Program-made: the position numbers and the translations under genes
Shown here: piece after piece, positions 1 to 25,183 of the stretch
Numbering within the stretch: the stretch's first letter is position 1
Layout of the letters: each line of letters starts with the position of its first letter
Notes under the pieces: generated by a model
Seen by the model: the letters and a program-made list of their open reading frames with translations, nothing else
Database searches by the model: none
Told to the model about the DNA's origin: nothing
DNA from: Nonlabens ponticola
Lineage (GTDB): Bacteria > Bacteroidota > Bacteroidia > Flavobacteriales > Flavobacteriaceae
Assembly (NCBI RefSeq): GCF_003966335.1
Contig: NZ_CP034549.1
Location: 1,260,001 to 1,292,000 of the forward strand
Direction of reading: 5' to 3'
Length of the DNA: 32,000 nucleotides

Positions 1-816
1 TGCTTGGTATAATTTCATGGTCTCCATAGCTTCTTTCACATCATGAACACGCAATATGCTAGCCCCATTGAGTAGGCAGGCCATATGTAGCGCAGTCGTA
101 CCGTTGAGTGCGACGGCAGCATCAGTTCCTAGCGTCTTGTAGATCATGGATTTTCTGGAAACGCCCGCCAATAAAGGTACACCATGAGATAGTAGCAATT
201 CTTGATGGCTAAAGAGTTCAAAGTTTTGAGCTGTGGTTTTGGCAAATCCATAACCTGGATCAATGATAATATCGTGAATGCCGTGACTCCGAGCCATTGC
301 GATACGTTCGGCAAAATAGCGATTGATGTCTATGATGAGATCGTCGTAATCAGTCAGCGTTTTCATGGTTTGCGGCGTTCCACGCATGTGCATCATGATG
401 TAAGGCACCTTATGTTTTCCAACGGTTTCCATCATTTTGCGATCTAGTTGTCCAGCACTTATATCGTTGACAATGTCAATGTTGTGTTGTAGAGCTGTTT
501 TGATTACGCTTTCGCGAAAGCTGTCACAACTAATCATCGAGTCAGGAAAATTCCTTTTGACCAGCTCAATGATCGGGATAACACGTTGCTGCTCAACACT
601 GGCAGAAATATCAGTGCCATCAGGACGGCTGCTGTAACCACCTATGTCGATAAATGTCGCGCCATCGTGCAACATTTTTTCTACCTGCTGCAGCACGTCG
701 CTATCATTCTTAAGTTTGCCACCATCATAAAAAGAATCTGGCGTGACGTTGACGATGCCCATGACGCGTGGCGTGGAAAGGTCAACAAGGCTGCCGCGGC
801 AATTTATGGTGTGCAT
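1..816 (-). CDS. folP: Dihydropteroate synthase, 3' end cut by window edge
   Basis: Not in the ORF track because no stop lies in the window. Reverse-strand translation from ATG (814-816) gives MHTINCRGSLVDLSTPRVMGIVNVTPDSFYDGGK...DIGGYSSRPDG...DPGYGFAKT...AGVSRKSMI...RVHDVKE, which are classic pterin-binding DHPS motifs. The short + strand ORFs at 202-837 are antisense shadows. Confidence 0.9.
   Translation of the reverse strand, partial: MHTINCRGSLVDLSTPRVMGIVNVTPDSFYDGGKLKNDSDVLQQVEKMLHDGATFIDIGGYSSRPDGTDISASVEQQRVIPIIELVKRNFPDSMISCDSFRESVIKTALQHNIDIVNDISAGQLDRKMMETVGKHKVPYIMMHMRGTPQTMKTLTDYDDLIIDINRYFAERIAMARSHGIHDIIIDPGYGFAKTTAQNFELFSHQELLLSHGVPLLAGVSRKSMIYKTLGTDAAVALNGTTALHMACLLNGASILRVHDVKEAMETMKLYQA
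508..521. repeat. GCTTTCGCGAAAGC palindrome, copy 1 (inside folP, read as SFRES)
   Basis: Exact 14/14. Flank on + strand is ATTAC-motif. Confidence 0.95.
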
Positions 817-3123: not shown

Positions 3124-3438
3124 ATGACCGACTTTAAAAACGGATACGATACACTTTCTCAAGCCATTGAAGATTTACAGGACAAAGGCTACACCATAGA
3201 TTATGACCTGGTAGAAGATGGACTCAAATCAAAAGATCTCAAGAAAAAATGGAAGGCAGAAGAGCTGGATGTCGTCAAATTTTACCGATTTGAAGGCATG
3301 GCAGATCCTGGTGACAATACTATCCTATATGTGATAGAATGTAACGATGGTAATAAAGGACTATTGGTAGACGCATATGGCGCAGACGTTTATGTATCGC
3401 CTAAAATGATCGAAAAACTAAGAATGAATGACCAATAA
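3124..3438 (+). CDS. Conserved hypothetical small protein
   Basis: ORF 3067-3438 begins at TTG. The ATG at 3124 (MTDFKNGYDTL) is the more plausible start. Function not recognised. Confidence 0.5.
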   Translation: MTDFKNGYDTLSQAIEDLQDKGYTIDYDLVEDGLKSKDLKKKWKAEELDVVKFYRFEGMADPGDNTILYVIECNDGNKGLLVDAYGADVYVSPKMIEKLRMNDQ

Positions 3439-3769
3439 TCTTTCTTGGAGTGACTTTATGAAAATAGACATGCGCATCGGTACCATTATCGATGCGCAAC
3501 TGTTTCCAGATGCTCGCAAACCTGCTTACAAACTGCACATCGATTTTGGTCCAGACATAGGTCATAAAAAAACCAGTGCCCAAATCACAGATCACTACAC
3601 TATTGAGGATCTTATAGGTAAGCAAATCATCGCCGTTGTCAACTTTCCAGAAAAACAAATCGCCAATTTCATGAGCCAGTGCCTAGTGCTAGGCTCCGTT
3701 GATGATCAAGGAAAAGTAATTTTACTGCAGGCTGAACGCACCGCAAACAATGGTGATCGCATCGGGTAA
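3428..3769 (+). CDS. csaA: tRNA-binding (EMAP/CsaA-type) protein
   Basis: 113 aa. MKIDMRIGTIIDAQLFPDARKPAYKLHIDFGPDIGHKKTSAQIT...IIAVVNFPEKQIANFMSQCLVLG closely parallels B. subtilis CsaA as I recall it. Confidence 0.8.
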   Translation: MTNNLSWSDFMKIDMRIGTIIDAQLFPDARKPAYKLHIDFGPDIGHKKTSAQITDHYTIEDLIGKQIIAVVNFPEKQIANFMSQCLVLGSVDDQGKVILLQAERTANNGDRIG

Positions 3770-3781
3770 TTTTTTTAGTCA

Positions 3782-3795
3782 GCTTTCGCGAAAGC
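3782..3795. repeat. GCTTTCGCGAAAGC palindrome, copy 2 (convergent intergenic csaA/M14)
   Basis: Exact 14/14, followed by GTAAT. Confidence 0.95.
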
Positions 3796-3948: not shown

Positions 3949-6488
3949 TACATCGCCTTACTGAAGAAAATAGCGTTCATCAACAGCTTGTTGGTTCCAT
4001 ACCAAAAAGCCCTGAAGTTGGTGTTGTCTGTAAAACCGATGACCTCGCCACGGCCGTAGCTGTTATGCTTGAACGGAACGGTGTTTTTCAAGGCCTCTAG
4101 ATTAGGCTTAGAAATATAACCAGCCATAAGCGGCTCGTTAGTGTACTTAATAGGATTGCGATAAGAAACACTATCTGCCTCTACAAACAAGGTCGTGTTG
4201 CGGAACATAGGCAGCTGTTCATCCTTATAACCAAAAGCAATAGGGTGCGAGCGGTCCAGTCTAGTCTCAAAAATAGCACCGCCTATAACTTGAGCGCCGT
4301 TGAAATTGCTGCGCTGCTCAAAAGTCACATCTTTAGCAGGATTTTCGGTTTCCTTAAAAGTCAGCTGCAATAGTTTCTCTCTGGACATCCATCTCAACCC
4401 ATTGCGATATCCTATAAGTGTACCACCAGCTCGAGTCCAAGATTTAAGTTTGCTTACAACATCTTCTTCTGGACCACCATAAGTTGCAGGAAAGATAATG
4501 GTGCTGTACTTGCTCAGGTCATATCGAGATAGGTTTTCCAGCTGCAATTTGGTCACCACCATATCATAGCGTTGGTCCATCAAGTGCCAAATCTCACCAG
4601 CATCGTACGGATTGATTCCGTCGCCCACGACCAGTGCGATGTTAGGTTTATCCAGCGATACAAATGAATTGGATCCCAAATCAATACCAGTCGTCAAACC
4701 CGTAGTTACAGAAACTACTTCTACATTATTGTCATCTGAGAGCTCGTACAATCTCTTGTTAAGCTCTTGAGCATTCATTTTTTGAGCACTTACGGGTATC
4801 ATGATGGTCCCATAATCATAAGACTGGCCAGCAAGATCAAAAGGTTGCATGGCCACCTTGGCTCTGATGCCAGCGTTGAGAATATTGCTCAGCACTTTGG
4901 GTGCGCCATACTCATTCCAGCGCATGAGGTAGGCATATTGTGATACGGGTAGTGCTTTGCGAGCAATCGTATTTCGAGCTGTGTCCAGTTTACCAGTCTC
5001 CTTATCTAGCGATATTGTTCTTCCAGCTTCCGCACCACGGGCGTTTAAGCTGTAATCCATATCAAACGCTAGTGGAAACGTCCAGGCGCTTATGTCATAG
5101 AACAAGCTGTCCTGAAAAGTGGTGATCTTCTGGAACATCGCATCGACCAGCTTGCTTTTGGTTTGTGTTCTAGGAATCATGTAGGCATATCCAGCTTTAT
5201 ACTTCTTGCCATCTATGGTAGCATCGCTTTTAAGTTCCTGCACTTTGATATCGTGTCTTAATAGTATTTCGGCTAGCGCATCAGTACGGCCGCTGTCTGT
5301 ATAATCGCCAAAGATGATGTTCCCGGATTTCTGATTGCTGCGCACCTGATCATAGAAGTCGGCTTGATAATTCATGAGTTTATCACGCATTTGGTAACTG
5401 GCTTCTAGCGTACTCATGGCAGCCGTCAACTGATTGCGTATGGTAAACGGGAAAGTCAGGACGCCATTTACGGAATTCTGTGCGTGTCCTCTAGAGCTCG
5501 CTTGTTCAAAAAGAATCCCAACGCTACCATTAACATCTGGAAAGGTGGATCCTTTACCATAATAAAAGTCATCAAAACTCTCTTCGGTATAATAAAAGGA
5601 ACCAATTTTATCTAGCGCTGCAGCGTGATAATTCCCCATTTCTTTGGTCAGATCTTGATTTATTTGTGGCGTCAATGGATTAGTCCTAGACGGTATTCCT
5701 GGCTGAAAAAAGAAAGAACTATTGGTGCCCATCTCGTGATGATCGGTAAGCACATTAGGCATCCACTGATTAAAACTGGCGATGCGCGCTCGTGATTCTG
5801 GTAATTGTACTGGCAACCAATCGCGGTTCATGTCAAACCAATAGTGGTTGGTACGACCACCAGGCCAGACCTCGTCATATTCACGGTCGTTGCCGTCAGG
5901 ATTGATGTTTTCGCTTTTGTGTTGATTCACCCAACCTGCAAAACGTTGCAGGCCATCTGGATTAAAACTAGGATCTAACAAAATCACTACATCGTCTAGT
6001 TTTTCCAAGGTCTCTGCATCTTGAGAAGCCGCTAGATGATAGGCATAGAGTAGCGCAGCGTTGGATCCACTAGGCTCGTTACCGTGAATGGAAAATCCTT
6101 GATAGATCACTACAGGTGCAGCGTCATTACTTGCGCCCGTGATGCGTTGCTGGCGCTGTTCTTTAATCTGATCGATGCGTGCATGGTTTGCTGGCGATGT
6201 GATGGTCAACAAGTACAGCGGTCTATCTTCATAGGTGGTGCCTCGATTCTCGATCGTTATGCGATCACTAGCATCCGCAAGGGCTAGCATATACTGCGAT
6301 AATTTATCGTGTGTGACATGCCATTTGCCTGGAACATAACCTATAACTTCTGCTGGTGTTGCGATGTTTGGATTGTAATTGTTGCTGGCTGGTAGGTAGT
6401 AATCTAATTGCGGATCAACGGTGACTTGAGCTTGTACCGCTTTCGCGAAAGCTAAAACCATCAAAATCCCTACTATTAAATGTCTCAT
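3948..6488 (-). CDS. Secreted M14-family zinc carboxypeptidase, large multi-domain
   Basis: 846 aa. Signal peptide MRHLIVGILMVLAFAKAVQAQ. HGNEPSG zinc-ligand motif and a downstream HHEMG region typical of M14. Confidence 0.85.
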   Translation of the reverse strand: MRHLIVGILMVLAFAKAVQAQVTVDPQLDYYLPASNNYNPNIATPAEVIGYVPGKWHVTHDKLSQYMLALADASDRITIENRGTTYEDRPLYLLTITSPANHARIDQIKEQRQQRITGASNDAAPVVIYQGFSIHGNEPSGSNAALLYAYHLAASQDAETLEKLDDVVILLDPSFNPDGLQRFAGWVNQHKSENINPDGNDREYDEVWPGGRTNHYWFDMNRDWLPVQLPESRARIASFNQWMPNVLTDHHEMGTNSSFFFQPGIPSRTNPLTPQINQDLTKEMGNYHAAALDKIGSFYYTEESFDDFYYGKGSTFPDVNGSVGILFEQASSRGHAQNSVNGVLTFPFTIRNQLTAAMSTLEASYQMRDKLMNYQADFYDQVRSNQKSGNIIFGDYTDSGRTDALAEILLRHDIKVQELKSDATIDGKKYKAGYAYMIPRTQTKSKLVDAMFQKITTFQDSLFYDISAWTFPLAFDMDYSLNARGAEAGRTISLDKETGKLDTARNTIARKALPVSQYAYLMRWNEYGAPKVLSNILNAGIRAKVAMQPFDLAGQSYDYGTIMIPVSAQKMNAQELNKRLYELSDDNNVEVVSVTTGLTTGIDLGSNSFVSLDKPNIALVVGDGINPYDAGEIWHLMDQRYDMVVTKLQLENLSRYDLSKYSTIIFPATYGGPEEDVVSKLKSWTRAGGTLIGYRNGLRWMSREKLLQLTFKETENPAKDVTFEQRSNFNGAQVIGGAIFETRLDRSHPIAFGYKDEQLPMFRNTTLFVEADSVSYRNPIKYTNEPLMAGYISKPNLEALKNTVPFKHNSYGRGEVIGFTDNTNFRAFWYGTNKLLMNAIFFSKAM
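6439..6452. repeat. GCTTTCGCGAAAGC palindrome, copy 3 (M14 peptidase signal peptide, AFAKA)
   Basis: Exact 14/14. Confidence 0.95.
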
Positions 6489-9998: not shown

Positions 9999-10021
9999 TC
10001 AATAATGTAGCAACAAGCTTG

Positions 10022-10050
10022 TTGATTGCAGTGGGCTTGTTGTAATTTTG
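10022..10050 (+). promoter_or_regulatory. Putative promoter for nusB
   Basis: TTG (10022-10024), 18-nt spacer, TAATTTTG (10043-10050) matching TAnnTTTG. Its last G is the first base of palindrome copy 4. Confidence 0.4.
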
Positions 10051-10063
10051 CTTTCGCGAAAGC
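10050..10063. repeat. GCTTTCGCGAAAGC palindrome, copy 4 (intergenic, abuts putative nusB -7 box)
   Basis: Exact 14/14. Confidence 0.95.
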
Positions 10064-10109
10064 TGAATCACCAACAGCTTTCAAAACATACCAAAGAAAT
10101 TACGTTCTT

Positions 10110-11048
10110 ATGCTTACTAGACGACAATTGCGCATCAAGGTTATGCAGGCAGTATTTTCATTTCACAGGCAGCGACCTGATGATTTGAAGGATCTTGAGA
10201 AATTCCTGAATTCCAGCATGACGCAAACGTTGACCTTGTTTTTGTACATGGCACAATTACTTGTTCGTTTGCATGAAATAGCGGTAGAAAAACATAAGGC
10301 GGCACAGTCACGCCATTTAGGGTCTCAGGCAGAGAAAAATATCACCAGCGCACTTATCGATAATGTAGTTCTCAAGCAATTAGCAAGTAGCGAGGTGCTC
10401 AAAGAAGCCCTTGCAAAACGTAAGTTGAAACCTTGGGATCTAGACTCAAAATATGTTGAGAACATCTACAACGACATTATCAAGAGTAAGGAATATGTGA
10501 TGTATGCTAGCGAGCCTAGCCCATCCATTAAAAAAGATCAAACTTTCATCACTAACATTTATACTGATGTAATCGCGCCCAGCGACCAACTCATGGATTA
10601 TCTAGAAGATGTGCATATCACATGGATGGACGATTATCCACTAGTAAATACGGCGATGATCATGTTCCTGCGCAAAGTGAAGCCTAACAAAGAGGTGAAG
10701 CTTCCAGAACTAGTTAAGGATACTGATGATATCAAGTTTGCGATGGAGCTATTCCGCAAGACGATCTTGAATCATGATGAGCTGGCTAAAAGAGTAGAAG
10801 GTAAAACGCCTAACTGGGATAAAGATCGTATCGCACAGATAGATAGCGTCCTCATTATGATGGCGCAATGTGAGTTTTTATATTTTCCAACGATACCTGT
10901 TAAGGTAAGTCTCAATGAATATCTAGAGATTTCAAAGGATTATAGCTCACCTAAGAGTAGCGTTTTTATCAACGGTATCCTCGATAATCTCCTCAAACAA
11001 TTTCAAAAGAACGATCAGATCAATAAGATAGGTCGTGGAACAATGTAA
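10110..11048 (+). CDS. nusB: Transcription antitermination factor NusB (long Bacteroidota form)
   Basis: ORF 10026-11048. I prefer ATG 10110 (MLTRRQLRIKVMQAVFSF). C-terminal DKDRIAQIDSVLIMMAQCEFLYF...VSLNEYLEISKDYSSPKSSVFINGILDNL is the NusB signature. Confidence 0.75.
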   Translation: MLTRRQLRIKVMQAVFSFHRQRPDDLKDLEKFLNSSMTQTLTLFLYMAQLLVRLHEIAVEKHKAAQSRHLGSQAEKNITSALIDNVVLKQLASSEVLKEALAKRKLKPWDLDSKYVENIYNDIIKSKEYVMYASEPSPSIKKDQTFITNIYTDVIAPSDQLMDYLEDVHITWMDDYPLVNTAMIMFLRKVKPNKEVKLPELVKDTDDIKFAMELFRKTILNHDELAKRVEGKTPNWDKDRIAQIDSVLIMMAQCEFLYFPTIPVKVSLNEYLEISKDYSSPKSSVFINGILDNLLKQFQKNDQINKIGRGTM

Positions 11049-12575: not shown

Positions 12576-14510
12576 ATGAATCAGGAACGAGTTGTCATTG
12601 AGAACGTCCAGCCGCAAATCAACGCTGGTAGACATCCCATAAAACGCATTAGTCAGGAAACGGTCCATGTGAGCGCAAATGTTTTGGTGGACGGTCACGA
12701 TATCGTTCAGGCCTCTGTCATGTACAAACATGAAAAGGCTCGCAAGTGGCAAGAGAACAGACTTTTAGATCAAGGCAATGACCTTTGGAGTGGTTCTTTC
12801 CAAGTAGAAAAACTGGGTTCTTATGAATATAAACTTGTGGGTTGGGTCGATTACGCACTCAATTGGCAGCATGGAATTTCCCGCAAACTGGCAGATGGTC
12901 AACACGTGAAAAGTGAGTTGCTTGATGGAGTGATTCATTTGGAGCACGCTTTCGCGAAAGCAAACAAAACAGAGTCATCATACCTTAAAAAAACCATCGA
13001 ACTATTTCAAAACGATGCTGACTATGACGCCGCAGTTCAGATAGCCACATCAAGCGAGTTGCACGACATTTTCTACAAATATCCAGCTAGATTATTCCTA
13101 GCCAGCAGCGATAGTTATACGTGTACTGTCGATAGAAAAAAGGCACGATTCTCAACCTGGTATGAGTTTTTCCCACGCAGTGCAGGCAGCAATTATGAGC
13201 ACGGTACATTCAAGGATTGTGAGAAACTGTTGCCATACGTGCAGGAAATGGGTTTTGATACCTTGTATTTTCCACCAGTTCATCCAGTTGGAGACGTAAA
13301 TAGAAAGGGAAAGAACAATACTACGACCGCGCACGGCGACGATGTAGGTTCTTGTTGGGGTATCGGTTCTAAGCATGGTGGTCATATGGCGTTGCATCCA
13401 CATCTGGGTAGTGAGGAAGATTTTAAGGAACTTATCCAGCAAGCCAAATCCTTAGGTATAGAAGTGTCAATGGATTATGCATTACAAGCAGCACCAGATC
13501 ATCCATGGGTAAAGAAACACAAAGCGTGGTTCCGTTGGAGACCTGATGGTACGGTTCAGTATGCAGAAAATCCGCCGAAAAAATATCAGGATATTCTACC
13601 TATTTATTTCGAGACGCCAGACTGGAAAAATCTTTGGAAAGAATTGCTGAAAATCGCTTTGTATTGGGTAGAAGAGTTTGATATCAAAGTATTTAGAGTT
13701 GATAATCCGCATACCAAACCTTTTCATTTTTGGGAATACTTGATAAGCGAGGTCAAGAAAAAGCACAACGATGTGATCTTTCTTGCTGAGGCTTTTACCA
13801 AACCTAAGGTGATGCAGCAGCTTGCCAAGGTAGGCTTCCAGCAATCCTACACTTATTTCACCTGGCGCAACAACAAACACGAGCTCACCGAGTATTTGAC
13901 AGAGCTTACCCAGAATCAAGAACGTGAATACATGCAGCCCAATTTCTGGCCCAACACTCCAGATATCAATCCATGGGCACTGCAGTCGGGAAATGAGAGT
14001 GTGCATTTACAACGCTATGCACTAGCCGCAACTTTAAGTTCCAGTATCGGGATTTATGGGCCTGTTTTTGAGCAAATGATATCGAGTGCCTTGCCAGGCA
14101 AGGAAGAATATCTAGATTCAGAAAAGTTCCAGATTGCTAACTACGACTGGAGTTTACGCAACAAACTCACACTCTTGATCACCAAAATCAATCAAGCGCG
14201 CCATGATTTGCCAGCCTTGCAACAAACCAATAACCTACAGTTTTTGCACAATGATAATGACCAGCTATTGACCTATTATAAGTGGAGTGATAATCATCAA
14301 AGTGAGGTGATCGTGGCGGTAAACTTGGATCCACATTATGAGCAGGAAAGTTGGGTTGCCATGCCACTAGAGCGCATGCAAATAGATGAGCATCATACCT
14401 ACACCGTTAAAGATGTGATCACAGGTAGCAGTTACAACTGGAAAGGCACGCACAATTTTGTAAAACTCAACCCAGTTTTGCCGTTTCACATTTTTGAGGT
14501 GCAGCGATAG
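12576..14510 (+). CDS. glgE: Alpha-1,4-glucan:maltose-1-phosphate maltosyltransferase
   Basis: 644 aa. N-terminus RVVIENVQPQINAGRHPIKR and FRVDNPHTKPFHFWE match GlgE hallmarks (GH13_3). Confidence 0.85.
   Translation: MNQERVVIENVQPQINAGRHPIKRISQETVHVSANVLVDGHDIVQASVMYKHEKARKWQENRLLDQGNDLWSGSFQVEKLGSYEYKLVGWVDYALNWQHGISRKLADGQHVKSELLDGVIHLEHAFAKANKTESSYLKKTIELFQNDADYDAAVQIATSSELHDIFYKYPARLFLASSDSYTCTVDRKKARFSTWYEFFPRSAGSNYEHGTFKDCEKLLPYVQEMGFDTLYFPPVHPVGDVNRKGKNNTTTAHGDDVGSCWGIGSKHGGHMALHPHLGSEEDFKELIQQAKSLGIEVSMDYALQAAPDHPWVKKHKAWFRWRPDGTVQYAENPPKKYQDILPIYFETPDWKNLWKELLKIALYWVEEFDIKVFRVDNPHTKPFHFWEYLISEVKKKHNDVIFLAEAFTKPKVMQQLAKVGFQQSYTYFTWRNNKHELTEYLTELTQNQEREYMQPNFWPNTPDINPWALQSGNESVHLQRYALAATLSSSIGIYGPVFEQMISSALPGKEEYLDSEKFQIANYDWSLRNKLTLLITKINQARHDLPALQQTNNLQFLHNDNDQLLTYYKWSDNHQSEVIVAVNLDPHYEQESWVAMPLERMQIDEHHTYTVKDVITGSSYNWKGTHNFVKLNPVLPFHIFEVQR
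12948..12961. repeat. GCTTTCGCGAAAGC palindrome, copy 5 (inside glgE, AFAKA)
   Basis: Exact 14/14. Confidence 0.95.
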
Positions 14511-14594
14511 ATATAGAAAGCAAATCTGAGGTATTGAAAACCTACAGAATTATTTATATCTTCAAGGACACTACAATCAACCACCTGACCTACC

Positions 14595-16217
14595 ATGTCT
14601 AAAGTAAAACTGACCAATCCCACGCGATGGGAAAACCTGCTGGATGATCCAGCTTTCAAGAAACAATTGACTGAAGATGTACTAGAGAACTATGTGGTCT
14701 CACAACGATGGTACGGTGGCAAGAGTAGTACACTCAAATACCTAGAGATTAGTGAGTTTTTTACCATAGCGCATAAAGGCGATCACTTTTATGGCTTGCT
14801 GCTTGAAGTCAATTTTAAAGAAGCTTTTTACCAGCATTATTTTCTACCGCTAGGCTTTGTGGAGGACAAAAAGGCGGCTGGCGATGGTCTTATTGCGCCA
14901 GTTCAATTAGGTGAGAAGACAGGTTACTTGGTTGATGCTTTATACCTCGATTCCTTTAGAAAAGTTCTCTTTGAAAAAATTATTGAGTCGCATCCTGTAG
15001 AAGGATTGGGTACTATAACTTTTCACGCAGGCGAGCAACTGGAAGAAACGGAGTATATAAGCAGCAGATTCCTGGGTGCAGAGCAATCCAATACCAGCAT
15101 CATTTTTAATGATAAACACATTATCAAATTCTTCCGCAGGATTTATAGCAGTACCAATCCAGATTACCAGATTTGCCGCTACCTGACTGAGCATACCAAC
15201 TTTGACAGATCGCCTACCTATACCGGTTCGATTAATCTAAATATTGTAAAGCGGCACGATATCACGCTGGCATTAATGCAAAAACTGGTGCCCAATGACG
15301 GTGATGGTTGGGAATGGATGTTGGGAGAATTAAAGACTGTTTTTAGCACGCTTTCGCGAAAGCATATTGACCCAAACACCTTGCCAGAAGTACAATTATT
15401 TTCTAGGCTCAAGCTGCGCGAGGTACCGCACGAGATCGTCGACTGGACTGGGCTGGATTTGTTGAAACGCATCAGGACACTTGCGTTGCGCACGGCACAA
15501 TTTCACGTGGCGATAGGAGCAGAGCGCAATGATTTGAAATTTACAGCAGATAAGTACAATGGAGATTATAACGTATGGCTTAAGAATAGGTTGCTGTACA
15601 TGTTCCAAAATCGACTGAATACGGTAGAGAACAACCTACATAAATTGAAAGATGAAGCGCTGGAATTGGCTCAAGAATTATTGGAGCGCAAGAATGAGGT
15701 GCGTGCGCGATTTATAGAATTTGACTGGCACCACATGAAAGGTGAGCGCATTCGTATCCATGGTGATTACCATCTTGGGCAAGTGCTGGTAGATGGCGAG
15801 GATTTTTATTTACTGGATTTTGAAGGCGAGCCTGAAAGTACTATTCGTGATCGCAAGGTGAAGCAAATGCCACAAAAGGATCTTGCAGGAATGTTCCGCA
15901 GTTTTCATTATGCCATTTATTCAACCATTTTTGAGCATCGTGATCAACTAGGTTTACCAATAGAAGATTTGTATAAAGCGGGCGAACTGTTGTACAAGTA
16001 TTTGATTTCCATATTTCTAGACACTTATCTGCATCATGTACATAACAACAACTTAAACATAGGCTACCAGAAAGAGGTCAATTTCTTGTTACAATTTTGT
16101 CTGCTTGAAAAGGCAATTTATGAACTGGGATACGAATTCAATTCTAGACCTAGCTGGGCGATCATACCACTGCGAGGTATTCAAAGCATTATGAATCACA
16201 AGCAGCAAAAAGTCTAA
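14595..16217 (+). CDS. mak: Maltokinase (Mak/Pep2-like, stand-alone, not fused to TreS)
   Basis: 540 aa. IHGDYHLGQVLV...FYLLDFEGEP matches the aminoglycoside-phosphotransferase-like Mak catalytic motifs. Lies between glgE and glgB. Confidence 0.7.
   Translation: MSKVKLTNPTRWENLLDDPAFKKQLTEDVLENYVVSQRWYGGKSSTLKYLEISEFFTIAHKGDHFYGLLLEVNFKEAFYQHYFLPLGFVEDKKAAGDGLIAPVQLGEKTGYLVDALYLDSFRKVLFEKIIESHPVEGLGTITFHAGEQLEETEYISSRFLGAEQSNTSIIFNDKHIIKFFRRIYSSTNPDYQICRYLTEHTNFDRSPTYTGSINLNIVKRHDITLALMQKLVPNDGDGWEWMLGELKTVFSTLSRKHIDPNTLPEVQLFSRLKLREVPHEIVDWTGLDLLKRIRTLALRTAQFHVAIGAERNDLKFTADKYNGDYNVWLKNRLLYMFQNRLNTVENNLHKLKDEALELAQELLERKNEVRARFIEFDWHHMKGERIRIHGDYHLGQVLVDGEDFYLLDFEGEPESTIRDRKVKQMPQKDLAGMFRSFHYAIYSTIFEHRDQLGLPIEDLYKAGELLYKYLISIFLDTYLHHVHNNNLNIGYQKEVNFLLQFCLLEKAIYELGYEFNSRPSWAIIPLRGIQSIMNHKQQKV
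15350..15363. repeat. GCTTTCGCGAAAGC palindrome, copy 6 (inside maltokinase, LSRK)
   Basis: Exact 14/14. Confidence 0.95.
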
Positions 16218-16261
16218 TTTACATATTGCAATCTCTAAAATCTTCAATCAATAAACCAACC

Positions 16262-18160
16262 ATGTCCACCGTACTCACACATTCCCTATTTACTGACTTT
16301 GATATTGACTTGTTCAAAGCAGGCAAGCATTATCGATTGTACGAGAAGTTTGGTTCTCATGTCATCACTAAAGATGGAGTAGAAGGAACCTATTTTGCGG
16401 TTTGGGCACCAAGTGCCAAGGCTGTTTCCGTCATTGGAGATTTCAATTTTTGGGTAGAAGGTGAACACCCATTGCATGTGCGTTGGGATAGTAGCGGTAT
16501 TTGGGAAGGATTTGTTCCTGGAGTCAAGCATGGTGCGACTTACAAATACAAGATTCACAGTTCGCATAACGATATCAAAACAGAGAAAGCCGATCCATAC
16601 GCACGTCGATGCGAGCATCCACCAAAAACCGCTAGCGTGGTTTGGGATTACAAACCCAACTGGACCGACAAAAAGTGGATGCAAAAGCGCGCCAAACACA
16701 ATGCGCTGGATAGCGCTTATTCTGTTTATGAGGTGCATCTGGGCAGCTGGAAACGCAAGATAGAAGAAGACCGCAGCCTGAGTTTTCTAGAATTGGCTGA
16801 CGAGCTCGTGGATTATGCCAAAAAGATGGAATTCACTCATATCGAGTTTATGCCGATTATGGAGTATCCGTATGATCCATCTTGGGGTTATCAGATCACA
16901 GGATACTTTGCGCCTACCTCAAGATTTGGTTATCCAGAAGAATTTGCACAGTTGGTAGATTCCATTCACAATGCAGGATTAGGAGTAATTCTAGATTGGG
17001 TGCCATCACATTTCCCAGAAGATGCGCACGGTCTAGGATTTTTTGACGGTACCGCTTTGTATGAGCATCCAGATCGCAGACGCGGTTATCATCCAGACTG
17101 GAAATCATTGATCTTTAATTATGGTCGTAATGAAGTCAAAAGTTTTTTAATATCCAACGCTCTTTTCTGGCTAGATCAATATCATGTAGATGGCTTGCGA
17201 GTTGACGCAGTGGCCAGCATGTTATTCCTAGATTATTCAAGAGAAGATGGAGAATGGGAACCTAATGTTCACGGTGGTCGTGAAAACCTGGAAGCCATTG
17301 CTTTTATGCGTGAGATGAACGAGGCAGTCTATCTCAATTATCCAGACACGCAAACCATTGCTGAGGAAAGCACCAGCTTTCCTATGGTAAGCAAGCCTAC
17401 CAGCATAGGTGGTCTTGGTTTTGGGATGAAGTGGATGATGGGCTGGATGCACGACACGTTGGAATATTTCAAGAAAGAGCCTATTTATAGACGCCACCAT
17501 CAAAATGATTTGACGTTCTCCATGACTTATGCTTTTACAGAGAATTTTATGTTGCCACTATCGCACGATGAGGTGGTTTACGGTAAGTCCAGTATTATAG
17601 GTCGCATGCCTGGAGACGATTGGCAGAAGTTTGCCAACCTGCGTTTGCTTTACAGCTACATGTTCACGCATCCAGGCGGTAATTTACTGATGATGGGATC
17701 AGAATTTGGCCAGCATGAAGAATGGAAATTTAATGGCAGTCTTGACTGGCATCTAACAGACTTTGAACCACATAAAGGAATTCAAGCGGTACTTACGGAC
17801 TTGAACAAACTTTACAAAAAACAGCCAGAGCTGCACGAGCTACAGTTTGATGCAGCAGGTTTTGAATGGATCTCACATGAGGATGCTGACAATAGTGTGA
17901 TAAGCTATGTGCGTAAAGGCAAAGACTCACATCTCGTCATCGTTTGTAACATGACGCCAGTACCTAGAGAAAATTATCGCATTGGTTTGCCAGAAAATAA
18001 GAACTATAAATTGCTATTCAATAGCGATGAGTCCAAGTACGGTGGTAGCGACTTTAAAGTCAAAAAATCTATCAAATCTCAAGAAGAGTCGTGGCAATAC
18101 CGTGATCAAAGTGGAGTAGTGGACTTACCGCCGTTGGGAGTTTTGGTGTATGGTATTTGA
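16262..18160 (+). CDS. glgB: 1,4-alpha-glucan branching enzyme
   Basis: ORF 16226-18160. ATG 16262 (MSTVLTHSLFTDFDIDLFKAGKHYRLYEKFGSH) preferred. GH13 motifs DWVPSHF, GLRVDAVASM, AEESTSFP, LPLSHDEVV. Confidence 0.92.
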   Translation: MSTVLTHSLFTDFDIDLFKAGKHYRLYEKFGSHVITKDGVEGTYFAVWAPSAKAVSVIGDFNFWVEGEHPLHVRWDSSGIWEGFVPGVKHGATYKYKIHSSHNDIKTEKADPYARRCEHPPKTASVVWDYKPNWTDKKWMQKRAKHNALDSAYSVYEVHLGSWKRKIEEDRSLSFLELADELVDYAKKMEFTHIEFMPIMEYPYDPSWGYQITGYFAPTSRFGYPEEFAQLVDSIHNAGLGVILDWVPSHFPEDAHGLGFFDGTALYEHPDRRRGYHPDWKSLIFNYGRNEVKSFLISNALFWLDQYHVDGLRVDAVASMLFLDYSREDGEWEPNVHGGRENLEAIAFMREMNEAVYLNYPDTQTIAEESTSFPMVSKPTSIGGLGFGMKWMMGWMHDTLEYFKKEPIYRRHHQNDLTFSMTYAFTENFMLPLSHDEVVYGKSSIIGRMPGDDWQKFANLRLLYSYMFTHPGGNLLMMGSEFGQHEEWKFNGSLDWHLTDFEPHKGIQAVLTDLNKLYKKQPELHELQFDAAGFEWISHEDADNSVISYVRKGKDSHLVIVCNMTPVPRENYRIGLPENKNYKLLFNSDESKYGGSDFKVKKSIKSQEESWQYRDQSGVVDLPPLGVLVYGI

Positions 18161-18429
18161 ATCTAGTCTATGACTGACGAAGAGAGCTAATTATGCTTCT
18201 AGATGTTTAGAAAAAATAAGTGATGAGTTGTCGATAGCTTATCAAGACGATGATGGCCTAGGAGAGATCGCTAAAGGAGTAAAAAAATACGTTTGGAAAA
18301 TAGCAGATCTGGCATCTGATAAAGAGAATCAGTTAAAATAATCCACCAACGTTTCCATTACTGCCGTTAAACTTCCCACAATCACAGCTCGATCGCTCAT
18401 CCATCCTCTAACTTGTAAGAAAACAAGAA

Positions 18430-18831
18430 ATGATGAATATTACCTTAAAGCAGGCGGAAGCCTTAATTGAAAAAGCAAAGTCTAAAGCGGTAGAGCTAGA
18501 TACCAAAATGAACATAAGCATCGTCGATGCAGGAGCAAATCAGGTTGCTTTTGTACGTATGGATGGTGCTTGGTTAGGTAGCGCAGACATTGCACTCAAG
18601 AAAGCCAAAACCGCTAGATTTTTTGATATGCCATCTGGTGAGATTGGTAAAATATCACAGCCTGGCGAGTCGCTATTCAATATTGAGCATTCTAATGGTG
18701 GTCTTATTACGTTTCCAGGTGGATTGCCGCTTAAAAATAAGGATGGCGAGATCATAGGCGCAGTTGGCGTAAGCGGCAGTACCGTAGAAAATGATCACGC
18801 AGTGGCTAGCGCAGCAGCACAGGCTATGTAA
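18430..18831 (+). CDS. GlcG/HbpS-family (DUF336) heme-binding protein
   Basis: 133 aa. [34 protein letters not shown]...GGLPL...[21 protein letters not shown] is typical of DUF336. Confidence 0.8.
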
Positions 18832-18855
18832 AATAATTGTTGCTATCAAAATAAT

Positions 18856-18888
18856 AAAAGCTCAGTCTGATAAAGGCTGAGCTTTTTA
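18856..18888 (+). terminator. Rho-independent terminator after the GlcG-like gene
   Basis: aaaAGCTCAGTC-tgataaa-GGCTGAGCTtttt. Confidence 0.75.
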
Positions 18889-18905
18889 TGATTCATAATC
18901 TGTCA

Positions 18906-18938
18906 CAAAAAAACGCGACCATAAAAATATGATCGCGC
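18906..18938 (-). terminator. Putative terminator after the DUF4382 gene
   Basis: cgcgaccat / atgatcgcg stem with one mismatch. A 7-8 nt U-run follows on the minus strand. Confidence 0.5.
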
Positions 18939-18961
18939 TTTGATAAGTTTTTGATCTCTAC

Positions 18962-19828
18962 TTAATCTTGATCAAAGTCCACTAATTCAAGTGTAGTCAC
19001 TGCACCTGTGGAGACCTCTACATCGTTTACTACGATAGTACGAGTTTCTGTAGTGTCATCGTCTTCATCATTATCATTGTCACTACCAGGAACTTCTTGT
19101 TCAAAAGTCACTGTGTAGGTTCCAGCTGGTACACCACTCAGGCGATAATTACCATCTGCATTGGTAAAGGTCGTGATCTCGTCAACACCATTGCTGGCTG
19201 TCACAAGCGTTTGAACATCAATAGGGTTTACAGATCCTGCGATCGCGCCAGACGCAGCCTCAAGCTGTGTGCGTATGACTGGTTTTAATGAAAATCCGCC
19301 ATTACCTTGTCTTACGATCGACTTATCGGCATCAAAATCCAAAACGAAATTGTAAAGAATACCGCTTTCAATCTCTTCGTTTACCTGCAGTTTTAATCCA
19401 GATTGTTGTGCACTAGGTGTTCTCAAAGGGAAAGATTCACCATCAATCACAACCGAATTGTCATCACCTAAAATCAGGCGTATCTGGCTTATTCTACCCG
19501 CAGGAATTTCATCGTCTGCAAGGATCACGTTCTCACCACCAGTAAGTTCCAGTAGGTCATAAACGCCGGTGTTATCCATGTTGATGATAACCGTGTTCTC
19601 ATCTTCATCGATATCGTCAATGTCGTCGCTGTCATTATCATCGTCCACATCTCCATTGTACTTTACCACAATTCCTTGAACATCAACAAAAACATTGTCA
19701 TAATCGCCAGGAGCATCGACCAATTTAAAAGTAACACGCGCGGTGCCATCATTGTTGTCATCATCGCTACAGGAAACAATTCCTATAAACATCAATGGAA
19801 TTAACATCCATTTCAATACATTTTTCAT
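18962..19828 (-). CDS. DUF4382-like lipoprotein with C-terminal carboxypeptidase-regulatory-like domain and poly-acidic tracts
   Basis: ORF 18962-19858. ATG 19828 (MKNVLKWMLIPLMFIGIVSCSDD, lipobox) preferred. TFKLVDAPGDYDNVFVDVQGIVV is the DUF4382 opening. GNYRLSGVPAGTYTVTF is CarboxypepD_reg-like. Confidence 0.6.
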   Translation of the reverse strand: MKNVLKWMLIPLMFIGIVSCSDDDNNDGTARVTFKLVDAPGDYDNVFVDVQGIVVKYNGDVDDDNDSDDIDDIDEDENTVIINMDNTGVYDLLELTGGENVILADDEIPAGRISQIRLILGDDNSVVIDGESFPLRTPSAQQSGLKLQVNEEIESGILYNFVLDFDADKSIVRQGNGGFSLKPVIRTQLEAASGAIAGSVNPIDVQTLVTASNGVDEITTFTNADGNYRLSGVPAGTYTVTFEQEVPGSDNDNDEDDDTTETRTIVVNDVEVSTGAVTTLELVDFDQD

Positions 19829-20014
19829 AATTAGGGTTTTAATTAAAAATTTAGGCAATTCTAAGGGCGAACTGCGCTATCAAGATTCGGCTTAACTTTC
19901 TTTAACTGCGATCTTAACACGTCATTAAACATCAGAAATTAAGATATATTGCTCAATAGCCCGTATTTCTTAGGGTGATAAGCATTTGTTGTATTAGAAT
20001 GATGTTTTTGTTTA

Positions 20015-20028
20015 TGCTTTCGCGAAAG
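20015..20028. repeat. GCTTTCGCGAAAGC palindrome, copy 7 (divergent intergenic DUF4382/GH31)
   Basis: Exact 14/14, followed by GTAAT. Confidence 0.95.
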
Positions 20029-20169
20029 CGTAATTATCGACAAACTGCACCGCAAACCTTTGCGCAACTAGATCACCATCAAGCATGAGAACTAGTGGGA
20101 TTTTATTATTTTACCAAGCACTAGCAGTAGGGTTAATTACTGCTTCAAAATACTGAATATCATCATTTT

Positions 20170-22572
20170 ATGATTACAAATACTGAATTAAATAATCAGG
20201 GAAATGTCTTCCCTGGAAAGTTGACGTCCTTTGATCACACGGTCGATACCTTAATGTTTTCAACAGATAATGGCGTGATACTGCAATTGCAGGTGCTGCG
20301 TGACAGTGTGCTACGTTTTAGGTACGGTGTAGGCGGCAAGATGGAAGATGATTTTTCCTATGCCATCGATCATAGCGGTAATCGTGGTTACAATAAGTTA
20401 GAAGTAAGCGAGCATAAAGATTATTATGAGGTGCAAACCAGTAAGGTGCTGTGCCGCATTTCTAAAGCAGATTTGCGCTCACGCATCTTTGATATAGATG
20501 GCAAGATCATTTGTGAGGATGAGCTAGGCTTTCACTATGAAGAGAGCTATCAATACGGCGGTGAGATCGTCAAGATGTCCAAAAAAGCACAGCCTGGCGA
20601 GAGCTACTACGGCCTAGGCGACAAGCCAGCAGATATGAACATGCGCGCCAAGCGTTTTGAGCTTTGGGGTACTGATCAATATGCTTTTGGAAAACAAACA
20701 GACCCACTTTATAAGAATGTACCATTTTACGTAGGATTGCAGAATAAAACGGCCTACGGTATTTTCTTTGACAATACATTTAGATCCTATTTTGATTTTG
20801 CCCACGAGCGTCATCACGTGACCAGCTTCTGGGCGCAAGGTGGTTCCATGGACTATTATTTTATCTACGGTCCAGATGTGAATAGCGTCGTGAGCGGTTA
20901 TACAGAGTTGACTGGTAAACCCGAGTTGCCACCATTGTGGGCGCTGGGTTATCACCAGTGTAAGTGGAGTTACTATCCTGAAAGCAACGTGAGAGAAATC
21001 GCGGCAAAATTCCGCGAGCTGCAGATTCCTTGTGATGCGATCTATCTGGATATTGATTACATGGATGGATTCCGTTGTTTTACATGGGATAATGATAAGT
21101 TCCCAGATCCTACCAAAATGATTAGCGATTTGCGGGAAGATGGTTTCAAGACCATCGCCATCATCGATCCAGGAATTAAGGTAGATCCAGATTATAGTGT
21201 CTACCAAGAAGCCATGGACAACGATTACTTCTGTAAGCGTGCCGACGGTCCTTACATGAAAGGTAAAGTGTGGCCAGGCCAGTGCTATTTCCCAGATTAC
21301 ACCAATCCTGAAGTGCGTGAATGGTGGGCTGGATTGTTTAAAGGCTTGATTGCTGATAATGGATTATCGGGTATCTGGAATGATATGAACGAGCCTGCGG
21401 TCATGGAAGTGCCTAATAAGACGTTTCCAGACGACGTGCGCCACGATTATGACGGGCATCCTTGCTCGCATAGAAAAGCGCACAACATCTATGGAATGCA
21501 AATGGCACGCGCGACGTATGAAGGCGTGAAGAAATTTATTTACCCTAAGCGCCCTTTTGTAATTACACGATCTGCCTATTCTGGAACGCAGCGTTATACC
21601 AGCAGCTGGTTTGGCGATAATGTAGCGACTTGGGAACACTTGAGCATTGCAAATATCCAGGCACAACGCATGGCGCTATCAGGAATGTCCTTTGCAGGAT
21701 CTGATATTGGTGGCTTTGCAGAACAGCCTACAGGCGAGCTTTTTGCCAGATGGATTGCGCTAGGTGTGTTCCATCCGTTTTGTAGGGTGCATTCCAGTGG
21801 TGATCATGGCGATCAAGAACCATGGACTTTTGACGAGAACGTTACCAACATCACAAGAAAGTTTGTGGAGTTGCGATATAAGTTATTGCCATACCTATAC
21901 ACCACTTTCTGGCAATATGCTGAAGAAGGCACACCAATGCTGAAGTCTCTAGTGATCTATGATCAAGAAGATGCTCAAACACATTACCGCAACGATGAGT
22001 TCATTTTTGGTGATCAGATACTGGTTTGTCCAGTATTGGAGCCTAATGCTAAAGGTCGTCGCATGTACATACCGCGAGGCGAGTGGTACAATTACTGGAC
22101 TCGTGAGACCATCACAGGTGGTCGTGAGGAATGGGTAGATGCAGATATTGACAGCATTCCGCTATTTGTGAAATCTGGTTCAATCATACCGCGTTATCCA
22201 GTGATGCAGTATGTAGGCGAGAAGAAGATTGAGTTCCTGACGCTAGACGTTTATTACACCATAGGCAAAGAAAAGTCCATCGTGTATGAAGATGCTAATG
22301 ATGGTTACGATTATAAGAAAGGCCGTTTCAGTTTACGTAATTTGAAGTTCAAAGGCTCTGAAAAAGAGATGGTGATTTCACAATACAAAGACGGTAAATT
22401 CAAAACGGAATATGAAACACTGCGTTTTAATTTCATCGGTTTGCCATTTGAGATTGATTATGTTGAGGTTGATAATGCAAAAATCCCGCTAGAAGAATTG
22501 AAGTATGATGTCAAGACCCAAACCATGTACATCCACAAAGAATTTAGTGAGTTACATGTGGTAGGGAAATAG
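20170..22572 (+). CDS. GH31 alpha-glucosidase
   Basis: 800 aa. YHQCKWSY, DAIYLDIDYMD and GIWNDMNEP (nucleophile region), FAGSDIGGF. Confidence 0.9.
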   Translation: MITNTELNNQGNVFPGKLTSFDHTVDTLMFSTDNGVILQLQVLRDSVLRFRYGVGGKMEDDFSYAIDHSGNRGYNKLEVSEHKDYYEVQTSKVLCRISKADLRSRIFDIDGKIICEDELGFHYEESYQYGGEIVKMSKKAQPGESYYGLGDKPADMNMRAKRFELWGTDQYAFGKQTDPLYKNVPFYVGLQNKTAYGIFFDNTFRSYFDFAHERHHVTSFWAQGGSMDYYFIYGPDVNSVVSGYTELTGKPELPPLWALGYHQCKWSYYPESNVREIAAKFRELQIPCDAIYLDIDYMDGFRCFTWDNDKFPDPTKMISDLREDGFKTIAIIDPGIKVDPDYSVYQEAMDNDYFCKRADGPYMKGKVWPGQCYFPDYTNPEVREWWAGLFKGLIADNGLSGIWNDMNEPAVMEVPNKTFPDDVRHDYDGHPCSHRKAHNIYGMQMARATYEGVKKFIYPKRPFVITRSAYSGTQRYTSSWFGDNVATWEHLSIANIQAQRMALSGMSFAGSDIGGFAEQPTGELFARWIALGVFHPFCRVHSSGDHGDQEPWTFDENVTNITRKFVELRYKLLPYLYTTFWQYAEEGTPMLKSLVIYDQEDAQTHYRNDEFIFGDQILVCPVLEPNAKGRRMYIPRGEWYNYWTRETITGGREEWVDADIDSIPLFVKSGSIIPRYPVMQYVGEKKIEFLTLDVYYTIGKEKSIVYEDANDGYDYKKGRFSLRNLKFKGSEKEMVISQYKDGKFKTEYETLRFNFIGLPFEIDYVEVDNAKIPLEELKYDVKTQTMYIHKEFSELHVVGK

Positions 22573-22648: not shown

Positions 22649-22685
22649 CGCTTTCCTGCCTGCCGGCAGGCAGGCGCGAAAGCGT
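22649..22685. repeat. Split copy of the palindrome carrying a nested 20-bp GC-rich palindrome
   Basis: CGCTTTC-CTGCCTGCCGGCAGGCAGG-CGCGAAAGCG. The inner CCTGCCTGCCGGCAGGCAGG (22655-22674) is itself a perfect palindrome. Followed by TAAAT. Confidence 0.9.
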
Positions 22686-25169: not shown

Positions 25170-25183
25170 GCTTTCGCGAAAGC
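25170..25183. repeat. GCTTTCGCGAAAGC palindrome, copy 8 (intergenic upstream of pepT)
   Basis: Exact 14/14, preceded by ATTAC. Confidence 0.95.

Follow-up and report, generated by a model that had tools for sequence, protein, structure and literature searches.

How does a perfect 14-bp palindrome come to be written into folP, the gene for dihydropteroate synthase (DHPS), and what might the same word be doing elsewhere on the chromosome? The question is raised by a stretch of 32,000 nucleotides from Nonlabens ponticola (contig NZ_CP034549.1, positions 1,260,001 to 1,292,000 of the forward strand; hereafter the window), in which the perfect palindrome GCTTTCGCGAAAGC stands at positions 508-521 and recurs, letter for letter, at 3782, 6439, 10050, 12948, 15350, 20016, 25170 and 30822, giving nine perfect copies. 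We find that the motif is specific to the Nonlabens/Dokdonia clade and that, at the copies within genes that can be scored, it was created by substitution and not by insertion. On balance, we think it probable that GCTTTCGCGAAAGC is a lineage-specific, highly iterated palindromic signal acting at the level of the DNA, as a selected duplex site for a dimeric protein.

The abundance of the motif is far beyond what chance would give. The base composition predicts approximately 7 × 10⁻⁵ perfect copies per window, against the nine observed; dinucleotide shuffles of the window gave 0.12 matches with two mismatches allowed, and none of 100 shuffles reached nine. Over-representation by orders of magnitude is characteristic of the highly iterated palindrome (HIP) class of genomic words. 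The window holds no copies with one or two mismatches, all occurrences of TTCGCGAA in it fall within copies of the full palindrome, and the density is approximately 1 per 3.6 kb, that is, about 0.28 per kb or about 280 per Mb. The copies, and the gene in which the first of them lies, are as follows (the identities of the other four protein-coding hosts are from Pfam).

1-816, minus strand: folP, 272 codons, running off the left edge of the window; E = 1.9 × 10⁻⁶² to solved DHPS structures
508-521: copy 1, in folP (minus strand), frame S-F-R-E-S, residues 99-103, directly after Asp98
3782-3795: copy 2, intergenic, between convergent genes, 13 nt past the stop codon of the open reading frame (ORF) 3428-3769
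6439-6452: copy 3, in the signal peptide of an M14 carboxypeptidase (minus strand), frame AFAKA, residues 13-17
10050-10063: copy 4, intergenic, 52 nt past the stop at 9998 and 47 nt before the likely nusB start at 10110
12948-12961: copy 5, in glgE (plus strand), frame AFAKA, residues 125-129
15350-15363: copy 6, in the maltokinase gene (plus strand), frame LSRK, residues 253-256
20016-20029: copy 7, intergenic, between divergent genes, 154 nt upstream of a GH31 gene
25170-25183: copy 8, intergenic, between co-directional minus-strand genes, 25 nt past a stop codon
30822-30835: copy 9, in a Kdo/WaaP-family kinase-like gene (plus strand), frame LSRK, residues 12-15

Copy 10050 is counted as intergenic because the TTG-initiated ORF at 10026-11048 is over-extended and its NusB-domain protein most likely starts at the ATG at 10110 (MLTRRQLRIKVMQ...). 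A terminator-like hairpin lies directly 5′ of this copy, at 10010-10043. Two half-motifs were also seen, at 2656-2669 (GCTTTCGCGA followed by unrelated sequence) and at 22670-22683 (unrelated sequence followed by CGCGAAAGCgtaaat), and these may be decayed or nascent copies.

A preliminary description of this DNA had stated that the palindrome is free of stop codons in all frames and that all three are used in the window, as AFAKA in the M14 peptidase and GlgE, LSRK in maltokinase and the Kdo-kinase-like protein, and FRES in FolP. Direct reading of the 14-mer bears out the first statement, and the frames and gene assignments of the second were correct. Every AFAKA, LSRK and FRES in the proteins of the window is encoded by exactly GCTTTCGCGAAAGC DNA, and the 44 copies found in ten loci divide into 18 intergenic, 11 AFAKA, 8 FRES and 7 LSRK. 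One DNA word thus underlies three peptides as well as the intergenic copies, which identifies the DNA, and not any peptide, as the target. The placement is biased towards spacers, in which the motif is enriched about 4-fold, with the non-coding 7.6% of the window holding four of the nine copies (P = 0.003), and it is even: the coefficient of variation of the spacings in the window is 0.32 (P = 0.001 against uniform placement) and the smallest gap is 2402 nt (P = 0.0002). Five other loci, with the window excluded, gave a coefficient of variation of 0.45 (P = 0.0009), and the smallest of 34 spacings was 1307 nt. An apparent preference of coding copies for junctions between hydrophobic and polar segments, seen at 4/5 copies in the window but at only 9/16 overall (P = 0.18, with one strand assignment wrong), was dropped.

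Origin of the copies within genes

In FolP the context of the motif reads ...MISCD-SFRES-VIKTALQHNIDIVNDISAG, and the motif codons AGC TTT CGC GAA AGC specify Ser99 to Ser103, adjoining Asp98, which we take to be the pterin-binding residue. Ser103 is 14 residues from the Asn117-Asp-Ile sequence, and Asp98 and Asn117 are 19 positions apart, or 20 if both ends are counted, which agrees with the earlier count of 20 residues from the conserved Asp to NDI. HMMER alignments of FolP with solved DHPS structures (5usw and 3tyu shown) are ungapped over the whole D...NDI segment, and for the Escherichia coli enzyme (1aj0) query residues 6-271 align to chain residues 5-270, a net indel of zero. For closer comparisons we used protein and codon alignments of 80 Flavobacteriaceae loci, the best FolP match in the genome collection having 73% identity. 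None of the 80 orthologues has a gap at the motif, and the surrounding ±10 codons are gap-free in 79, the sole gap (in L004) lying upstream of the motif.

The codon alignment indicates how the word was accommodated. The usual folP codons are GAT ACT TTT AGA AGT GAA GTT GCC (DTFRSEVA), where the window has GAC AGC TTT CGC GAA AGC GTA ATC (DSFRESVI); the Phe-Arg pair is retained, and the motif alters identity only at the two variable positions that follow it. The nearby Ser-for-Thr (Ser99) and Ile-for-Ala (Ile105) replacements are also found in motif-less lineages (L034, L046 and L060). The view that the motif sits in a conserved segment of FolP is therefore correct in that it overlaps conserved residues, but these have been kept through the choice of codons and only two variable residues have changed. 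The same 14-mer is present at the same folP codons in L003 and L004, and L001 has a two-mismatch copy there. The possibility that CGC is a rare arginine codon forced by the motif was discarded, CGC being the commonest arginine codon in the window (33%).

The other coding copies tell the same story. There is no gap at the motif in any of 80 GlgE orthologues, all 80 of which are also gap-free over ±10 codons, nor in any of 61 maltokinase orthologues, with ±10 codons gap-free in 65/65; in maltokinase the L-x-x-K pattern pre-exists in the orthologues. Approximately 30 orthologues of the Kdo-kinase-like protein have (S/T)LSRK and approximately 90 lack LSRK, again without a gap there. The M14 copy falls in the signal peptide, the length of which varies among orthologues, AFAKA being present in 66/120. 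Insertion is thus excluded at the scorable coding copies (FolP, GlgE, maltokinase and the Kdo-kinase-like protein), none of which carries the four- to five-residue insertion that an added element would have left, and the motif was therefore written there by substitution. This was the central inference of the preliminary description, which had argued against insertion of a mobile element from the folP copy, and the alignments uphold it.

The origin of a new copy can be followed in Nonlabens arenilitoris, in which the N-terminal copy of the Kdo-kinase-like gene is missing and a new copy is found 600 nt downstream, without an indel. The new copy (L282:10636, ATLSRKR) corresponds to ARLSGKD at approximately 31420 in the window, and the codons are ACG CTT TCG CGA AAG CGT and AGA CTT TCA GGA AAG GAT, respectively. 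Such turnover of sites within one gene fits selection for a copy somewhere nearby.

Taxonomic range, retention and flanks

The abundance data come from about ten loci (4-32 kb each) together with a few contigs that resemble proviruses. Of the 80 folP loci, the motif is borne only by those of Nonlabens, Dokdonia and two uncultured relatives; the other 74 flavobacterial loci (1.38 Mb) have no perfect copies and a single one-mismatch copy. Similarly, among 80 metagenome GlgE loci only the closest, L199 (80% identity), bears it, with six copies in 21.9 kb, and the other 79 have none. Densities of three to six copies per 21 kb were found in Nonlabens dokdonensis (five in 20.8 kb), Nonlabens marinus (six), N. 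arenilitoris (three, plus two degenerate), Dokdonia sinensis and the uncultured relatives, and perfect copies in relatives number 24 against six with one mismatch. One such near-copy, GCTTTCGCGgAAGC, occupies one orthologous site in three genomes (L001:3877, L003:12957 and L004:13807) within identical flanks (ggtac...ggaatc, with agaatc in L001); protein constraint on the mismatched base is a possible cause.

In the lytic Nonlabens phage P12024S (35.7 kb) the motif is missing, even when two mismatches are allowed; about ten copies would be expected there at host density. A scan of viral sequences gave 118 hits, most of them single chance matches in DNA of 52% G+C with normal flanks. Nine low-G+C loci from IMG/VR (L102, L116, L133, L158, L166, L169, L188, L194 and L197) have two or three copies each, with the C/G extension described below and moderately C-poor flanks, and three of the nine share the same copies; these loci look like flavobacterial proviruses or host fragments. 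It may be that temperate or integrated DNA acquires the mark and that lytic phage DNA does not.

Each of the nine window copies persists at its orthologous position in one relative or more, a degree of conservation that is also characteristic of the HIP class. The most informative comparison is with L199, which is syntenic with the window over 3.9-22.6 kb at protein identities of 71-92% and which keeps, unchanged in sequence and at the same positions, 5/5 of the window copies that lie there.

Copy 3 in L199: at the same offset, 36, in the M14 gene
Copy 4 in L199: 6074, in the spacer before nusB
Copy 5 in L199: 10373, at offset 372 of GlgE
Copy 6 in L199: 13211, at offset 755 of the maltokinase (Mak)
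Copy 7 in L199: 17861, 154-155 nt upstream of the GH31 gene

Over the same comparison the identity at four-fold sites is just 38%, and of the other coding 14-mers only 3.5% have stayed the same, so that the probability of all three coding copies remaining unchanged by chance is P = 4 × 10⁻⁵; the two shared intergenic copies sit in spacers that can otherwise barely be aligned. The remaining copies are matched elsewhere. L003 keeps both the folP copy and that at 3782, the latter at 470-483 within an otherwise scrambled spacer; copy 25170 has counterparts in the same spacer of N. marinus (L281:7264) and N. arenilitoris (L282:6879), and the copy at L279:5254 in N. dokdonensis is probably also in the corresponding spacer; the DNA of copy 30822 is present in N. 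dokdonensis and N. marinus (L279 and L281, both at 10030). Conservation of HIP1, the cyanobacterial palindrome that gives the class its name, at orthologous sites was read as selection by Xu, Lawrence and Durand (PMC5861425), and by the same logic the retention of the present motif across species points to selection. The preliminary description had named biased conversion, repair and selection as possible writers of the motif without choosing among them. From the sequences compared, such conservation favours selection or active maintenance, but a sequence-specific drive that corrected near-copies would be expected to look similar.

The copies share more than the 14-mer. In the relatives, a flanking C and G at −1/+1 are conserved at approximately 90%, giving an effective 16-mer, CGCTTTCGCGAAAGCG, whereas in the window they occur at just 9/18 half-sites (50%); positions −2/+2 vary by species, being A/T in the window and in Dokdonia and C or T in N. 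dokdonensis and N. marinus, a dialect-like variation (these comparisons set the nine window copies against L199, L279, L281, L282 and L023). Next to the core the flanks follow a weak, symmetric consensus, T.ATTAC / core / GTAAT.A, and beyond this inner part the copies have composition in common but not sequence. On each strand the 30 nt 5′ of the core contain 7.7% C, compared with 20.9 ± 1.75% at random window positions. The G-C skew is 0.4-0.6 at 11-30 nt and returns to background by 31-40 nt (88 half-flanks from ten loci), and the element is therefore approximately 74 bp long with a sharp edge. For copy 1, the extended element, comprising the core and 30 nt on each side, is at 478-551, and its 5′ flank is G/T-rich and C-poor on each strand. 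The folP flanks contain 9% C, against 24 ± 4% at the same codons of motif-less orthologues.

The palindrome folds only weakly. As single-stranded DNA the 14-mer has an energy of −2.1 kcal/mol (z = −0.2), and the core hairpin ranges from −2.1 to −4.5 kcal/mol. An extended hairpin or cruciform was rejected, since the likeness of the two arms within a copy (10.17/30) is the same as that between copies (10.08/30), and the 74-nt elements, at −15.1 kcal/mol, do not differ from chimeras (−15.5) or from cores with random flanks (−15.0). On each strand, GCGAAAGC may form the ‘extraordinarily stable mini-hairpin’.

Several further observations concern the neighbourhood of these loci. Divergent from folP, at 870-1406 on the plus strand, is a DUF1599 gene (Pfam ‘Nucleotide modification associated domain 1’). 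It adjoins folP in 78/80 Flavobacteriaceae loci, motif-bearing or not, and is thus not linked to the palindrome, but its association with folP is strikingly conserved. Other repeated words occur near folP (in its 20-kb neighbourhood) in other genera, namely AAACCTGTTAGGTC, present five times in a Flavobacterium metagenome-assembled genome (L043), and AAACCAAGCATTGG, present six times in Flavobacterium orientale (L071). At positions 12576-22572 of the window the genes for GlgE, maltokinase and GlgB are clustered, with that for a GH31 glycosidase after them, an arrangement conserved in many Flavobacteriaceae metagenome contigs; GlgE, maltokinase and GlgB constitute the maltose-1-phosphate α-glucan pathway, best known from actinobacteria. 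At L199:8470-9978 there is a partial duplication comprising the first 63 glgE codons and the upstream polyketide-cyclase-like gene.

Proposed function and competing explanations

The comparisons show that new copies arise by point substitutions where the sequence is already near and the protein tolerant, and that a copy, once made, is held unchanged while its synonymous and intergenic surroundings diverge to near saturation. Copies are favoured between genes, tolerated in all three frames and spread more evenly than chance would give. The perfect dyad symmetry, the weak hairpin energy and the want of copy-specific arm pairing suggest that the site is read as duplex DNA by a dimeric, sequence-specific protein, and the sharply bounded C-poor, G/T-rich flanks suggest that this reader would contact or require approximately 30 bp on each side, with a footprint of approximately 74 bp. 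The least certain step is the purpose: the sites may mark the cell's own DNA for some task that spans the chromosome and requires such marks at regular intervals, candidates being the organization of the nucleoid or of loops, a role also proposed for HIP1, or the recognition of self DNA in uptake or recombination, as for the uptake signal sequences (USS) and DNA uptake sequences (DUS). We put forward more tentatively, as a proposal that could readily prove wrong, a dedicated system for marking the cell's own chromosome, in which a dimeric protein would recognize the 14-16-bp palindrome and its ~30-bp flanks at ~800 even sites, for self-DNA recognition or for loops of a few kilobases.

A number of points weigh against a selected site of this kind. 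None of the window genes is a candidate for the reader (a DNA-binding protein, methyltransferase or nuclease). The term ‘genome-wide’ rests on about ten loci plus a few provirus-like contigs, and several of the conserved sites are phylogenetically non-independent. A drive correcting near-copies would also yield conservation at orthologous sites, so that selection is not proven by it, and the relatives do not show so extreme a want of copies with one or two mismatches as the window, which has none. Mutation could have left the flank skew as its footprint, in which case the skew would not be a requirement. Motif-less orthologues are already C-poor in the flanks of the GlgE and Mak sites, and the contrast with folP indicates that the flank composition is partly pre-existing and partly remodelled.

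The most serious competitor, which we regard as possible although unlikely, is a molecular drive arising from biased uptake, as with USS and DUS, in which motif-bearing alleles would be taken up or recombined more often and copies restored without benefit at each site. The clade specificity, the indel-free copies in genes, the use of all frames, the intergenic enrichment, even spacing, interspecies conservation and species-specific flank variants all match the properties of USS and DUS, and the motif is absent from the lytic phage. In addition, Riemerella columbina, of the same order, is naturally competent and prefers its own DNA, although no uptake sequence has yet been defined for it (PMC7965970). 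However, Flavobacterium johnsoniae was not transformable, neither Nonlabens nor Dokdonia is known to be competent, and no receptor is known. Uptake sequences are, moreover, asymmetric 9-12-mers that occur about once per kb with many one-mismatch copies, whereas the present motif is a perfect palindrome, roughly a quarter as dense and with few near-copies.

In a neutral mutational ratchet, a methyltransferase acting at TCGCGA or CGCG, together with biased mismatch or short-patch repair, would convert near-copies into a functionless site; a ratchet of this kind has been put forward for HIP1 by Elhai (PMC4390886). We judge it improbable here. In its favour, TCGCGA and CGCG are part of the core, the copies in the window are all perfect, with no near-copies among them, and the strand-specific 30-nt flank skew could be the footprint of a repair tract. 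Nevertheless, the invariant stretch, 14-16 positions without exception, far exceeds any methyltransferase site in length, and outside the motif TCGCGA and CGCG are neither enriched nor depleted (12 TCGCGA, of which nine are in the motif, and 75 CGCG). Mutation acting locally would not be expected to give even spacing or turnover of sites, three genomes retain one-mismatch copies at orthologous sites, and the same kind of conservation in HIP1 has been argued to reflect selection (PMC5861425).

An element acting in RNA or protein, such as a terminator, an mRNA-stabilizing hairpin, a processing site or a favoured peptide, is very improbable. Three of the four intergenic copies do lie 13-52 nt past a stop codon, and AFAKA is compatible with an Ala-X-Ala signal-peptidase site; but one copy lies between divergent promoters, and the three peptides and the non-coding copies share a single DNA word. 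An intrinsic terminator can be rejected, as no T-run follows the stem, the 3′ flanks are A/C-rich on both strands and the hairpin is weak. None of the terminator-like predictions in the window overlaps a copy, such hairpins lying elsewhere, and a search of the whole window against Rfam 15 at the gathering threshold gave no matches.

The idea of a miniature mobile element, of the repetitive extragenic palindrome (REP), miniature inverted-repeat transposable element (MITE) or Rickettsia palindromic element type, scattered by many insertions, accords with a repeated, palindromic unit of defined ~74-bp extent enriched between genes, but is hardly credible given the lack of an insertion of any length at the FolP, GlgE, Mak and Kdo-kinase-like copies (61-90 orthologues each), flanks alike in composition and not in sequence, arms not complementary beyond composition, and unclustered copies.

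Comparison with known systems

In the literature searched, we found neither the 14-mer nor its 10-mer core in a relevant context, although a prior description elsewhere is possible; searches combining HIP with Flavobacteria, or Dokdonia or Nonlabens with palindromes, returned nothing, and the Nonlabens and Dokdonia genome papers checked do not describe the motif. Were it indeed part of a self-marking system, no element of the HIP or USS kind would have been described in Bacteroidota before it, and its site is long enough to allow direct isolation of the reader, a goal not reached for HIP1 in approximately 30 years. The long invariant core and bounded flanks predict a footprint of ~74 bp and a protein whose distribution is specific to Nonlabens and Dokdonia. 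How hyper-abundant genomic words rise and persist is a long-standing question, for which the motif offers an independent example in a different phylum, and in folP the word has been created by substitution even beside catalytic residues, at a small, measurable cost to the protein. For annotation, the motif explains the recurrent AFAKA, LSRK and FRES peptides and warns against labelling the copies as repeat elements or terminators.

With REP sequences and the bacterial interspersed mosaic elements (BIMEs) related to them, MITEs and the Rickettsia palindromic elements, the motif shares only the character of repeated palindromic DNA and, in the case of the Rickettsia elements, occurrence within ORFs. 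Those elements are added sequence with imperfect, variable stems and are mostly extragenic, whereas the present motif adds no bases and has an invariant core. Closer in form are parS (bound by ParB), NBS (by Noc) and matS (by MatP), perfect or near-perfect palindromes of 13-16 bp that are bound by dimers and can sit in genes. The TTTC...GAAA arms are common to parS, NBS and the motif, but the gap between them is 4 bp in parS and NBS and, by direct reading, 2 bp in the motif. Sites of the parS, NBS and matS type number approximately 10-70 per genome and are regionally clustered, whereas the density of the motif, approximately 1 per 3.6 kb in unrelated loci, implies several hundred per genome, and we therefore rejected an identity with parS or NBS.

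The uptake sequences, USS of Pasteurellaceae and DUS of Neisseriaceae, resemble the motif in several respects: both are clade-specific, enter coding sequence by substitution, are enriched between genes and evenly spaced, exist in variant forms among related species and have extended, weaker flanks. In its clade specificity, substitution in genes, even spacing and absence from foreign DNA the motif displays the genomic signature of USS and DUS. It differs in that USS and DUS are non-palindromic, shorter and approximately four times denser, with many one-mismatch copies, and in that an uptake assay and a receptor define their function, no counterpart of either being known for Nonlabens or Dokdonia.

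The closest parallel is with HIP1 (GCGATCGC) of cyanobacteria. Both are perfect palindromes, hugely over-represented, that lie in and between genes and are not mobile elements; in the window five copies of our motif are coding and four intergenic, and 4/5 of the coding copies are indel-free. Both have conserved orthologous sites, a non-random distribution and palindromic extensions that differ between species (PMC5861425, PMC4390886). The motif is, however, 14-16 bp long with an enrichment of approximately 10⁵-fold, compared with 8 bp and 15-300-fold for HIP1; its density of ~280 per Mb is at the low end of the HIP1 range, its spacing is regular at the kilobase scale where the periodicity of HIP1 is 10-90 kb, and it has a 30-nt compositional flank that is not mentioned for HIP1 in the text consulted. 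HIP1 also contains GATC and CGATCG methyltransferase targets, whereas a methyltransferase link is implausible for the full length of the motif. In sequence, length and phylum (Bacteroidota, in Nonlabens and Dokdonia, as against cyanobacteria) the two differ, and the motif is analogous to HIP1 without being a member of it: it behaves like HIP1 and like USS and DUS, and belongs to neither.

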